Shown: in pieces, positions 6,060 through 40,599 of the stretch
Numbering within the stretch: the first letter of the stretch is position 1
Layout: every line of letters begins with the position of its first letter
Virus record (IMG/VR): IMGVR_UViG_2537562012_000007
Coordinates: 1 to 40,599 of that record
Strand: one strand, 5' to 3'
From: a virus
Lineage: Duplodnaviria; Heunggongvirae; Uroviricota; Caudoviricetes
DNA: 40,599 nt
Position numbers and translations under genes: made by a program
Notes under the pieces: generated by a model
What the model was told of the DNA's origin: nothing
What the model saw: only the letters and a program-made list of their open reading frames with translations
Database searches by the model: none

Positions 6060-6351
6060 GCTGACCTCATTTCCCCTTAACGCCGGGGTAGCGGAACAAA
6101 AACCTGCTGCATAGTTATTAAAGTTGAACCCTGCCGTCATGTTCTTACGCCTCGGGCTGGCTACTTAACCCCTGACCACTGCCTGGTAACTCGAAGTATT
6201 GCCCTGCATTCTGTGGGGTGGGGTGAGGGAATGAATTGAGTTTAGAAAAATGAACTTTTCAGGTCAATGTTTTTTTATCAAAACATTTTAGGCAGGCAGC
6301 TGTTAAGCCATCACCACGATGGCATACAGTTAATCAAATAGATGAGGTTGG

Positions 6352-6990
6352 TTAAATATCTTGTTGAATTTTAAAGCATACGCCCAATATGCAAGATAGA
6401 TCATCCAGCATAATTGAAGGGTAGCGAGGATTCGTGGGGACTAAAAGAATATCCGGCCCTTCTATCTCCAGTTTACGAATGACAGGTGTTGTGGTCCCTT
6501 TGGGTAAGGCAAGGACAATATTTCCTGGTTGTACGGTTCGATCGGGATCAACAAAAACTGTTGAACCATTTGGGATGGAAACTCCCCCACCAGATGTTGA
6601 CATACTGTCACTCTCTAGAACAACTGCAAAGGTATTGGCCGGGATTTCTCCGACAAGCTGCACACAAGAGGTTATTGAGGAATTTTTCATATAATCACTC
6701 CAGCTTGCTGCCTGCTGAAGTGATAGTAGCGGAACCGTTTTTATCGGCGGTAAAGATAGATCAAGCGAATCACCTGTATTTAACTCTCCTCCATTAAGAA
6801 GCCAATTTTCGTTTACTTTCAATATCTTTGCCAGTGAACTTATGTAACGCGAGGACGGCGCTCCTCCACCGTTCATCCATTGACTTACGGAGCCTTTTGA
6901 TGCGCCAGTGGCATTGACAAGGTCTTTGCCTTTCAGGTTTAGCGCATGCATACGTTGGGTTATGCGTTCAGATATTGTTTGCTTGCTCAT
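6352..6990 (-). CDS. cI-like prophage repressor (XRE-type HTH plus LexA/S24 autopeptidase domain)
   Basis: 212 aa; N-terminal HTH (GASKGSVSQWMNGGGAPSS), C-terminal S24-like region with ESDSM serine motif; no SD sequence before the ATG at 6990, consistent with a leaderless PRM-type transcript; divergent from the cro-like gene. Confidence 0.85.
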   Translation of the reverse strand: MSKQTISERITQRMHALNLKGKDLVNATGASKGSVSQWMNGGGAPSSRYISSLAKILKVNENWLLNGGELNTGDSLDLSLPPIKTVPLLSLQQAASWSDYMKNSSITSCVQLVGEIPANTFAVVLESDSMSTSGGGVSIPNGSTVFVDPDRTVQPGNIVLALPKGTTTPVIRKLEIEGPDILLVPTNPRYPSIMLDDLSCILGVCFKIQQDI

Positions 6991-7081
6991 GTTTTGATTT
7001 TAAAACACAGATGGTTTTGTTTCTTGACTTTCTTTGGTTTTGATTATTAAACTTTTGGCGTTCAGTTTTATGGAGCGACTC

Positions 7082-7324
7082 ATGAAAAAATCAGAAGTAT
7101 TAGGCTATTTTGGCGGAGTTGTTAAAACAGCCGCAGCTCTAGGAACGTCAAAAACCACAGTCAGCATGTGGGGGGAAGAGGTTCCGTGGAAATGGGCGTT
7201 GCTAATTCAGGCAGTCACTGCCGGGGCGCTCAAATATGAGTTACACATACCGACGGTTGTCATTCCCGGTTCTGATCATAATCCGCCTTCTAACCAAGGG
7301 GGGATTCATGAAAATCAAGCATGA
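7082..7324 (+). CDS. Cro/DicC-like small DNA-binding protein
   Basis: MKKSEVLGYFGG...TAAALGTSKTTVSMWGEEVP, resembles P22-type Cro; GGAG RBS; first gene of the rightward operon opposite the repressor. Confidence 0.7.
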   Translation: MKKSEVLGYFGGVVKTAAALGTSKTTVSMWGEEVPWKWALLIQAVTAGALKYELHIPTVVIPGSDHNPPSNQGGIHENQA

Positions 7325-17023: not shown

Positions 17024-17099
17024 GGCCCTTTAGCTCAGTGGTGAGAGCGAGCGACTCATAATCGCCAGGTCGCTGGTTCAAATCCAGCAAGGGCCACCA
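17024..17099 (+). tRNA. ileZ: tRNA-Ile2-like (anticodon CAU)
   Basis: Manual cloverleaf: acceptor GGCCCTT/AAGGGCC, D-arm GCTC/GAGC, anticodon loop CTCATAA, T-loop TTCAAAT, CCA end; resembles E. coli tRNA-Ile2 more than elongator tRNA-Met by recollection. Confidence 0.8.
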
Positions 17100-17100
17100 A

Positions 17101-17177
17101 CCGCCACTAGCTCATCAGGAAAGAGCGTCAACCCTTTAAGTTGAGTGTGCGAGGTTCGAGTCCCCGGTGGCGGTCCA
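17101..17177 (+). tRNA. tRNA-like gene, anticodon apparently UUU (Lys-like), atypical
   Basis: Acceptor CCGCCAC/GTGGCGG, anticodon stem TCAAC/GTTGA with loop CCTTTAA (C at position 33), T-loop TTCGAGT, CCA end; D-loop lacks the usual GG. Confidence 0.55.
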
Positions 17178-17179
17178 GT

Positions 17180-17255
<76 letters not shown>

Positions 17256-17258
17256 TAT

Positions 17259-17333
<75 letters not shown>

Positions 17334-19940: not shown

Positions 19941-20303
19941 GTGGTTTTTACTGAGCGCGGTGTACACGGTGGAACATATGGCGGGAAGTTTGTTGCTTAT
20001 GATTATGCAGCATGGCTAAACCCCGGATTTAAATATGCAGCCTATAAAGTCCTGGATGACTACTTCACCGGAGAACTTCAGCATCGCAACAGCTTAAGTG
20101 CGCAGCTCAATATGAAGTGTCATGAGTTTGATCAGAAAAAAGATATGGCGAGCTTCTGTGGACAAGGGCTGGCGGCATGGCGCTATACGAAGCCAGTGTT
20201 GGTCGCTGAGATTAACTCCCTGGCTAACCAGCTGCAGATAACGATCCCCGGGCTGTCCGGTATTTGCCGGTATGAAATTACCGGAAGGCGCGGTCGTTAC
20301 TGA
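19941..20303 (+). CDS. KilA-N-like domain protein, possibly 5'-truncated
   Basis: GGTYGGKFVAYDYAAWLNPGFKYAAY resembles the conserved C-terminal half of KilA-N domains; the frame opens directly after the Rz stop and the only start is a GTG. Confidence 0.4.
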   Translation: MVFTERGVHGGTYGGKFVAYDYAAWLNPGFKYAAYKVLDDYFTGELQHRNSLSAQLNMKCHEFDQKKDMASFCGQGLAAWRYTKPVLVAEINSLANQLQITIPGLSGICRYEITGRRGRY

Positions 20304-36757: not shown

Positions 36758-39700
36758 ATGGGTAAAGGCAGCAGTAAGGGGCATACCCCGCGCGAAGCGA
36801 AGGACAACCTGAAGTCCACGCAGTTGCTGAGTGTGATCGATGCCATCAGCGAAGGGCCGATTGAAGGTCCGGTGGATGGATTAAAAAGCGTGCTGCTGAA
36901 CAGTACGCCGGTGCTGGACAGTGAGGGGAATACCAATATATCCGGCGTCACGGTGGTGTTCCGGGCAGGTGAGCAGGAGCAGACACCGCCGGAGGGATTT
37001 GAATCCTCCGGCTCCGAGACGGTGCTGGGTACGGAAGTGAAATATGACACGCCGATCACCCGGACCATCACGTCGGCAAACATTGACCGTCTGCGTTTTA
37101 CTTTCGGCGTGCAGGCACTGGTGGAAACCACCTCAAAGGGGGACAGGAATCCATCGGAAGTCCGCCTGCTGGTTCAGATACAACGTAACGGTGGCTGGGT
37201 GACGGAAAAAGACATCACCATTAAGGGCAAAACCACCTCACAGTATCTGGCCTCGGTGGTGGTGGATAACCTGCCGCCGCGCCCGTTTAATATCCGGATG
37301 CGCAGGATGACGCCGGACAGCACCACAGACCAGCTGCAGAACAAAACGCTCTGGTCGTCATACACCGAAATTATCGATGTGAAACAGTGCTACCCGAACA
37401 CGGCACTGGTCGGCGTGCAGGTGGACTCGGAGCAGTTCGGCAGCCAGCAGGTGAGCCGTAATTATCATCTGCGCGGGCGTATTCTGCAGGTGCCGTCGAA
37501 TTATAACCCGCAGACGCGGCAATACAGCGGTATCTGGGACGGAACGTTTAAACCGGCATACAGCAACAACATGGCCTGGTGTCTGTGGGATATGCTGACC
37601 CATCCGCGCTACGGCATGGGGAAACGTCTTGGTGCGGATGTGGAAAATGGCGCTGTATATCGGCCAGTACTGCGACCAGTGTCCGAGGTTTGGCGGCACG
37701 GAGCCGCGCATCACCTGTAATGCTCTGACCACACAGCGAAGGCGTGGGATGTCTCAGTGATTTCTGCTCGCGATGCGCTGTATGCCGGTATGGAACGGGC
37801 AGACGCTGACGTTCGTGCAGGACCGACCTCGATAAGGTTGGACCTATAACCGCAGTAATGTGGTGATGCCGGATGATGGGCGCCGTTCCGCTACAGCTTC
37901 AGCGCCCTGAAGGACCGCCATAATGCCGTTGAGGTGAACTGGATTGACCCGAAAACGGCTGGGAGACGGCACAGAGCTTGTGAGAACGCAGGCCATTGCC
38001 CGTTACGGTCGTAAGTCACGAAGATGGATGCTTTGGCTGTACCAGCCGGGGGCAGGCACACCGCGCCGGGCTGTGGCTGATTAAAACAGAACTGCTGGAA
38101 ACGCAGACCGTGGACTTCAGCGTGGGTGCTGAAGGGCTTCGCCATGTACCGGGCGATGTCATTGAAATCTGCGATGATGACTATGCCGGTATCGCACCGG
38201 CGGGCGCGTGCTGGCGGTAACACCAGACCCGGACGCTGACGCTCGACCGTGAAATCACGCTGCCATCTCCGGACCACGCTGATAAGCCTGGTTGACGGGC
38301 AGGGGAGTCCGGTAGCGTGGAGGTCAGTCCGTCACCGACGGCGTGAAGGTGAAAGTGAGCCGTGTTCCTGACGGCGTTGCTGAATACAGCGTTGGGGGCT
38401 GAAGCTGCCGACGTGCGCCAGCGCCTGTTCCGCTGCGTGAGTATCCGTGAGAACGAGACGGCACGTATGCCATCACCGCCGTGCAGCATGTCCGGAAAAG
38501 AGGCCATCGTGGATAACGGGGCGCACTTTGACGGCGACCAGAGCGGCACGGTAATGGTGTCACGCCGCCAGCGGTGCAGCACCTGACCGCAGAAGTCACC
38601 GCAGACAGCGGGGAGTATCAGGTGCTGGCGCGCTGGGACACGCCGAAGGTGGTGAAGGGCGTGAGCTTCCTGCTTCGCCTGACCGTGGCAGCGGATGACG
38701 GCCGTGAGCGGCTGGTCAGCACGGCCCGGACGACGGAAACCACTTACCGCTTCACACAACTGGCTCTGGGGAACTACAGGCTGACAGTCCGGGCAGTAAA
38801 TGCGTGGGGGCAGCAGGGCGATCCGGCGTCGGTATCGTTCCGGATTGCCGCACCGGCAGCGCCGTCGCGGATTGAGCTGACGCCGGGCTATTTTCAGATA
38901 ACCGCCACGCCGCATCTTGCGGTTTATGACCCGACGGTACAGTTTGAGTTCTGGTTCTCGGAAAAACGGATTGCGGATATCAGGCAGGTTGAAACCAGCG
39001 CGCGTTATCTTGGTACGGCACTGTACTGGATAGCCGCCAGTATCAATATCAAACCGGGCCATGATTATTATTTTTACGTTCGCAGTGTGAACACCGTTGG
39101 CAAATCGGCATTCGTGGAGGCTGTCGATCAGCCGAGTGATGATGCATCAGGCTATCTGGATTTTTTCAAAGGCGAGATAGGGAAAACCCATCTGGCTCAG
39201 GAGCTGTGGACGCAGATTGATAACGGTCAGCTTGCGCCTGACCTGACTGAAATCAGGACGTCCATAACGGATGTCAGCAATGAAATAACACAGACCGTCA
39301 ATAAGAAACTGGAAGACCAGAGTGCAGCGATCCAGCAGATACAGAAGGTTCAGGTTGATACAAATAATAACCTGAACAGCATGTGGGCAGTGAAGCTGCA
39401 GCAGATGCAGGACGGACGCCTTTATATTGCGGGTATCGGTGCCGGTATTGAGAACACCCCTGACGGCATGCAGAGTCAGGTGCTGCTGGCAGCAGACAGG
39501 ATTGCGATGATTAATCCTGCGAATGGCAACACAAAGCCGATGTTTGTTGGTCAGGGCGATCAGATATTCATGAATGAAGTGTTCCTGAAACGCCTGACGG
39601 CCCCCACCATTACCAGCGGCGGTAATCCTCCGGCATTTTCCCTGACATCAGACGGGAGACTGACGGCGAAAAATGCGGATATCAGTGGCAGTGTGAATGC

Positions 39701-40211
39701 GAACTCAGGAACGCTCAACAATGTCACGATTAACCAGAACTGTACGATTAAGGGCATGCTGGAGGCGACCCAGGTCAGAGGAGATTTCGTTAAAGCTGTA
39801 TCAAAAGCCTTCCCGAAAAAAGTCGGTACGTGGGGTAACACGGAAACACCAAACGGTACGGTTACAGTCACCATCAGCGATGATCATAACTTTGACCGCC
39901 AGATTATTATTCCGCCCATTATTTTTAACGGTATAGCGTATGACGATCCGGGGAGCGGAAATAACCCAGGAGGCACGCGATACACGGGTTATGGTTTTGA
40001 AGTTCGCAAAAACGGCGTATTAATCGCATCCAGAGAAACTAAAGGGGCCATTCCCGGTAGTTACAGTGCAGTTATTGATATGCCGAGTGGCAGGGGAAGC
40101 GTCACTCTGGAGTTTAAGATTTTCCAGAAAGGCAATCAGGGGGCAGGCAATATCACCGACTGTACGGTGATTGTGACCAAAAAAGCCGCTTCCGGCATCA
40201 GTATTCGTTGA
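36758..40211 (+). pseudogene. Tail tip / host-specificity protein J, split by multiple frameshifts in its middle section
   Basis: ORFs 36758-37720, 37996-38220, 38362-38586 and 38574-40211 each match consecutive parts of lambda J as recalled; between about 37640 and 38600 the reading frame changes repeatedly. Confidence 0.75.
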
Positions 40212-40281: not shown

Positions 40282-40599
40282 ATGCGTAAAGTTTGTGCAG
40301 CAATTTTGTCCGCAGCCATTTGTCTGGCCGTATCCGGTGCGCCTGCATGGGCGTCTGAACATCAGTCCACGCTGAGCGCGGGGTATCTTCATGCCTCGAC
40401 GAACGTTCCCGGCAGTGATGATCTGAACGGGATTAACGTGAAATACCGTTATGAGTTTACGGACACACTGGGGCTGGAGACGTCGTTCAGCTATGCAGGA
40501 GACAAGAATCGCCAGCTGACCCGTTACAGCGATACCCGCTGGCATGAAGATTCCGTTCGTAACCGCTGGTTCAGCGTAATGGCGGGGCCGTCTGTGCGC
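40282..40599 (+). CDS. lom: Lom/Ail/OmpX-family outer membrane protein (3' end beyond window)
   Basis: MRKVCAAILSAAICLAVSGAPAWA signal peptide, then GINVKYRYEF ... SVMAGP resembling lambda Lom; GAGAGG RBS; absent from the track because no stop lies within the window. Confidence 0.7.
   Translation, partial: MRKVCAAILSAAICLAVSGAPAWASEHQSTLSAGYLHASTNVPGSDDLNGINVKYRYEFTDTLGLETSFSYAGDKNRQLTRYSDTRWHEDSVRNRWFSVMAGPSVR

Follow-up and report, generated by a model that had tools for sequence, protein, structure and literature searches.

The locus examined here raises a question about the tail tip gene of a prophage: has gene J been inactivated by mutation, or is J broken only in the sequence that was deposited? 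The window, by which we mean the whole analysed stretch of 40,599 nt, carries J near its right end. As deposited, this gene reads as an open reading frame of 320 aa, then short open reading frames and then one of 545 aa. It amounts to four CDS in total, whereas one uninterrupted open reading frame of about 1130–1230 aa is expected of J. The parts of the gene, the CDS annotated on it and the gene that follows it are these:

36758..40211, + strand: tail tip / host specificity gene J as deposited, 3454 nt (intact alleles have 3498 nt)
36758..37633, + strand: clean 5' part of J, 876 nt, in frame, gap-free against the relatives L001 and L002
37634..38553, + strand: deletion patch of J, 38 events, 44 bases missing, no insertions
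38554..40211, + strand: clean 3' part of J (receptor-binding half), 1658 nt, no differences from L002 after 38130
36758..37720, + strand: CDS EMV34198.1, 320 aa, very probably spurious, J residues 1–292 plus a frameshifted tail
37996..38220, + strand: CDS EMV34267.1, 74 aa, very probably spurious, J fragment in a shifted frame with a match to Pfam Phage-tail_3
38362..38586, + strand: CDS EMV34300.1, 74 aa, very probably spurious, J fragment in a shifted frame
38574..40211, + strand: CDS EMV34253.1, 545 aa, C-terminal half of J, starting at an internal GTG
40282..40599, + strand: lom, truncated by the contig end (according to the gene list, the contig coordinates and the sequence)

Compared at the sequence level, the gene under the patch is an ordinary lambda-type J (TipJ, host specificity protein J). 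As in lambda, it is positioned after L, K and I and before lom; the full gene order of tape measure, M, L, K, I, J and lom is seen in the gene lists of L003 and L084 and in the relatives L002 and L090. The fragments also carry the domain set of lambda gpJ, i.e. FNIII-A_GpJ, Phage-tail_3, Ig_J, Phage_Tail_Tip and Ig_GpJ_C in the precomputed Pfam annotation. What distinguishes the gene in the window from lambda gpJ is its division into four CDS as deposited. At the DNA level the deposited J is 97.7% identical over 100% of its length to the annotated J of phage PhiR42_1 and others, and 12 nucleotide substitutions separate it from gpJ of E. coli 120899. The I protein encoded beside J is widespread (406 blocks).

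Global alignment of J of the window to two intact J genes of 3498 nt, those of phage PhiR42_1 and E. coli 120899, reveals 44 deleted bases, no inserted base and substitutions at background level only. The missing bases are distributed over 38 deletion events, of which 34 comprise 1 nt, two comprise 2 nt and two comprise 3 nt; 36 of the 38 shift the reading frame. All of them are confined to positions 37634..38553 and both flanks are clean. An earlier note on this DNA, made from the sequence alone, had described a localized cluster of frameshifting lesions in the middle of J (37640–38600), had found the first 880 bp or so and the last 1.6 kb or so of the gene to read cleanly, and had taken the lesions for single-base deletions rather than substitutions. 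The alignment agrees on each of these points. The same note had the frame switching several times; the switches are real, yet with 36 frame-shifting events their number was understated. The segment holding the patch measures 1601 nt in the window and 1645 nt in 91 of 91 examined homologues, and because all 91 span exactly this length we regard the segment as free of natural length variation. The patch retains 917 columns, and in these the nearest allele and the window differ by a single base. Deletion density is highest at the left edge of the patch, where 14 bases are missing in the first 100 nt.

The position of the deletions relative to natural variation in J was analysed with a panel of J alleles drawn from 80 IMG/VR loci together with phage and chromosomal copies, which gave 75 distinct alleles. 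A deletion within a run was scored over the whole equivalence class of columns in which it could lie, and the null distribution consisted of 5000 random placements treated in the same way. Allele-variable columns are hit by 36 of the 38 events, as compared to 14.3 ± 3.0 expected from the simulations (maximum 24, 75 alleles). An equal number of events, 36 of 38, include codon position 3 (null 20.7 ± 3.0, maximum 31), and 30 of the 38 fall on a column with a minor-allele frequency of at least 0.1 (null 5.5 ± 2.1, maximum 15). When only single-base deletions with an unambiguous placement are taken, 19 of 20 lie on variable columns versus 198 of the 894 other columns of the patch (Fisher p = 1e-11). 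Codon position 3 is likewise the site of 19 of these 20 (binomial p = 1e-8). Replication with eight independently fetched alleles gave 15 variable columns out of 20 versus 71 out of 894 (p = 1.3e-12). The 2- and 3-nt deletions match runs of adjacent variable columns. Many real alleles, when compared with the nearest allele, differ from it throughout long runs of consecutive deleted columns and are identical to it at the retained columns in between. Deleted bases show no preference for homopolymers: runs of one, two and at least three bases account for 57, 32 and 11% of them versus 59, 31 and 11% of the background. Mutation has no means of telling at which synonymous sites the copies of a gene differ, while a consensus drawn from the reads of multiple copies does register such sites. 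Judged from the alignments, the errors are at sites where J copies differ from each other, mostly synonymous third positions, and it is only an assembly process that would explain this.

These observations weigh directly on the reading that J is a genuine pseudogene, with 38 real small deletions and a receptor-binding tail tip protein inactivated by natural decay. The deposited J sequence is indeed broken, and tail genes of prophages do decay in nature. There is, however, no reason why natural deletions should gather at synonymous positions at which paralogues differ (p ~ 1e-11). Decay would also be expected to prefer homopolymers and repeats, which is not seen here, and to bring along insertions, substitutions and nonsense changes, whereas the patch has no insertion and one substitution in 917 nt. 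After the first frameshift nothing would keep 37 more within 920 nt while 39.7 kb stayed clean. In addition, the pattern occurs in no related assembly, and four assemblies whose J has the identical 3' half do contain the base lacking at 38553. Real decay of tail genes in cryptic lambdoid prophages proceeds through IS insertions, large deletions and nonsense changes, which are spread over the element and common to related strains. The window resembles the decayed cryptic lambdoid prophages of E. coli in having a fragmented tail gene within a prophage, but it has none of their mixed, spread and strain-shared lesions; nor do its deletions prefer slippage-prone contexts or recur by inheritance in related strains. 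We therefore consider a genuine pseudogene very improbable.

Intactness of the rest of the prophage had been claimed as well, and this holds. Outside J, comparison of the window with its nearest relatives gives isolated small gap events only; a cluster like that in J is not seen, and the structural genes are all intact open reading frames. The first 20 kb of the window contain six small gap events against a relative that is 99.2–99.7% identical. The tail module outside J, compared with a 94.5% identical relative, has small gap events that are located in a few divergent spots.

The lesion is confined to one assembly. Among public assemblies the 320-aa fragment is encoded by exactly one contig, AQDA01000058.1 of E. 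coli BCE002_MS12 (GCA_000354295.1). The window is the final 40.6 kb of this contig of 128,844 nt and its end lies within 1 nt of the contig end. The contig terminates inside lom, 388 nt past J, which puts the patch about 2–3 kb from the contig end. A 31-mer across three of the J deletions is absent from IMG/VR viral contigs and from species-representative genomes. The frameshift-specific 74-aa peptides EMV34267.1 and EMV34300.1 form singleton clusters among about 15 billion proteins and are found in no other assembly. The 545-aa C-terminal fragment is also present on four short contigs of unrelated assemblies (L085–L088). All four have their first base about 5 nt ahead of the last deletion site, reading ACGGTAAATGG; they contain the A that is absent from the window at 38553, and from there on they are 100% identical to the window over 1905–2026 nt. 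Strains that share the identical 3' half of J thus have this base. Independent assemblies break where the patch ends on the right, which is what a repeat boundary there would lead one to expect.

Partial N-terminal J proteins of other drafts frequently end at residues 292–299, near the left edge of the patch, in a list that is biased by clustering. The 320-aa fragment belongs to a 90%-identity cluster of 5380 members, most of which are J N-termini of 274–335 aa that are labelled 'partial' and come from draft assemblies. This suggests that J is a habitual breaker of contigs in short-read drafts of E. coli, with the caveat that clustering biases the lengths. The 545-aa fragment has been deposited also as EMX78443.1, from another genome in the same submission series.

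BCE002_MS12 (AQDA00000000, reads SRR446817) is among the isolates sequenced by Sahl et al. in 2017, and for its genome 100-bp Illumina HiSeq reads were assembled with Celera Assembler, which builds a consensus from overlaps and accepts overlaps that contain mismatches (PMC5469772). SPAdes was run by the authors as well. The nature of the data is important for the possibility that we are dealing with a generic stretch of low quality that has nothing to do with paralogues and results from low coverage or from indels typical of a platform, such as homopolymer miscounts or an unpolished long read. Patches of deletions only are typical of an unpolished long-read or 454 consensus, and the gradient in deletion density is like that of a decaying read. 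In 100-bp Illumina data, on the other hand, indel errors are rare; homopolymer enrichment is absent, and random read errors would not select variable third-codon positions. We leave this explanation only a very small chance. The tail of a Sanger read or a long-read error, which had been considered because of the density gradient, is rejected in view of the Illumina data and the lack of homopolymer bias. More generally, the homopolymer errors of 454, Nanopore and PacBio data are similar to the J patch in that clustered 1-nt deletions break open reading frames in DNA that otherwise matches its relatives. They differ in that the patch shows no homopolymer bias, comes from Illumina data and has its sites tied to paralogue variation.

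We consider it highly likely that the broken J is a consensus artefact, produced when reads of several J paralogues were merged and the columns in which they disagreed were dropped, and that no gene decay is involved. J occurs at a median of three places per complete E. coli genome and at up to 14. It is most likely that BCE002_MS12 has several lambdoid prophages, and the middle parts of their J genes are presumed to differ by a few per cent. Reads of 100 bp from more than one J copy would then have been placed by the assembler in one stretch of the contig. In columns where the copies agree the base would be called correctly. Columns without a majority base would turn into a gap, or into an ambiguity code that was later stripped, and one base would be lost per paralogue-variable site. 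A gap may arise, for example, if a mismatch is laid out as two half-filled columns. As for the software step that would convert disagreement into a gap, surrogate or gap-fill placement, contig merging and the stripping of ambiguity codes are the candidates. The lack of insertions and substitutions, the bias towards sites that vary at high frequency and the multi-base events would all be explained by the dropping of columns without a majority. Mixed bases and excess read depth across the patch are predicted.

A local assembly or consensus problem was also what the earlier note had favoured, and the location of the deletions at copy-variable sites, together with a pattern unique to one draft made with Illumina reads and Celera Assembler, bears this out. 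Its supporting argument was that decay in nature would leave substitutions; the site-specificity of the deletions is the stronger argument. Real inactivation of the receptor-binding protein, which it had put forward as the other option, is not supported in view of this site-specificity, the exclusive occurrence of deletions and the restriction to one assembly. Co-assembly of J paralogues as the specific cause goes beyond that note, which named no such cause.

Repeat-induced mis-assembly in short-read drafts has been described in general terms as a source of artificial frameshift 'pseudogenes' (PMC6742220). The J patch has in common with such collapsed or merged repeats a target that is multi-copy in E. 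coli, an adjoining contig break, frameshifts that exist in the assembly only and inflated counts of partial CDS. In the usual repeat mis-assembly identical copies are collapsed and the depth is in excess, whereas here we propose that copies differing by a few per cent were merged. The signature of the patch is also unlike that of the usual collapse: one nucleotide is deleted per disagreement, the sites are paralogue-variable third-codon positions, and there are deletions only. A literature search for this deletion signature from Celera Assembler found nothing specific.

Deletions at the sites where paralogues differ would also be expected if diverged J copies had recombined in the cell and each mismatch in the heteroduplex had been resolved as a one-base deletion, in which case the deletions would be physically present in the genome. 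Such a process is without precedent. We know of no repair pathway in which a mismatch ends up as a single-base deletion; repair by MutHLS or VSP restores one base or the other. Furthermore, one short-read draft is the only place where the pattern is found, and thousands of J genes in complete genomes do not show it. The probability of a real heteroduplex process is in our view close to nil; if it were true, it would be an outcome of mismatch repair, from mismatch to deletion, never described before.

Returning to merged paralogues, we searched 83 distinct J alleles for partners that would reproduce the deletions, using a pairwise tie and models with three to four copies in which columns are lost under 'no-majority' or 'any-disagreement' rules. 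No pair of these alleles and no set of three to four reproduces the deletions. Over all models 15–24 of the 38 events are explained, with 1–17 false positives; for the best sets the figures are 19–24 events and 4–17 false positives. An incomplete reconstruction would be expected if the strain's own mosaic J copies are outside the panel, but the paralogue model is left incomplete to this extent. With 14 bases lost within about 55 nt, the left edge exceeds the divergence that a single read overlap should tolerate. Similarity between alleles does not change along J at the limits of the patch, the 5' part being as conserved as the patch, and the start of the patch at 37634 is not explained by the identity profile of the panel.

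When the 44 columns are filled from the nearest allele, an open J of 1165 aa without a stop codon is obtained, with two amino acid differences from WP_000515638.1. Going by this reconstruction, the real J of the strain is probably intact and 1165 aa long. The patch very probably represents no real biological feature, and the J of the prophage is very probably intact. To call the prophage defective or tail-defective, or to call J a pseudogene, on the basis of the deposited sequence would be wrong. GenBank contains four spurious CDS as a consequence (EMV34198.1, EMV34267.1, EMV34300.1 and EMV34253.1), three of which are singletons. The combination of deletions only, paralogue-variable third-codon sites, no homopolymer bias and a location near a contig end offers a diagnostic for consensus errors of this kind that does not need the reads. 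The same artefact may well recur in other genomes of the project that went through the same pipeline (PMC5469772), which comprises 93 further genomes assembled with Celera Assembler.

Some further features of the element are worth recording. The prophage is a mosaic. Several complete ETEC genomes contain a prophage that matches the integration, regulatory and lysis half of the window (1–20588) at 99.2–99.7% identity. For the head and tail half (20357–40599) there is no relative above about 94.5% among 5,426 complete E. coli genomes. Position 1 of the window coincides with the stop codon of the integrase gene (1–1119, − strand), and in the relative L089 potC and potD adjoin at this place. On the right the element is truncated by the assembly, and what lies beyond lom, i.e. 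the side tail fibre genes and the right attachment site, is missing. A segment of about 1.1 kb (6226–7302), with an open reading frame of 212 aa on the minus strand (6352..6990), is without counterpart in the otherwise near-identical L089 and looks like a replacement of the immunity region. Near the corresponding place L089 has an IS1 copy that is absent from the window. At 20256, in the region of the lysis genes, the window has one extra base relative to L089, and the CDS of L089 at this position is annotated as incomplete. The late-regulatory region contains a cluster of four tRNA genes (17024–17333, + strand), one with the anticodon CAT and the others for Lys (TTT), Thr (TGT) and Gly (TCC). 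The tRNA with the CAT anticodon is called Met by ARAGORN and tRNA-Ile in the annotation of the relative NZ_CP029981.1.
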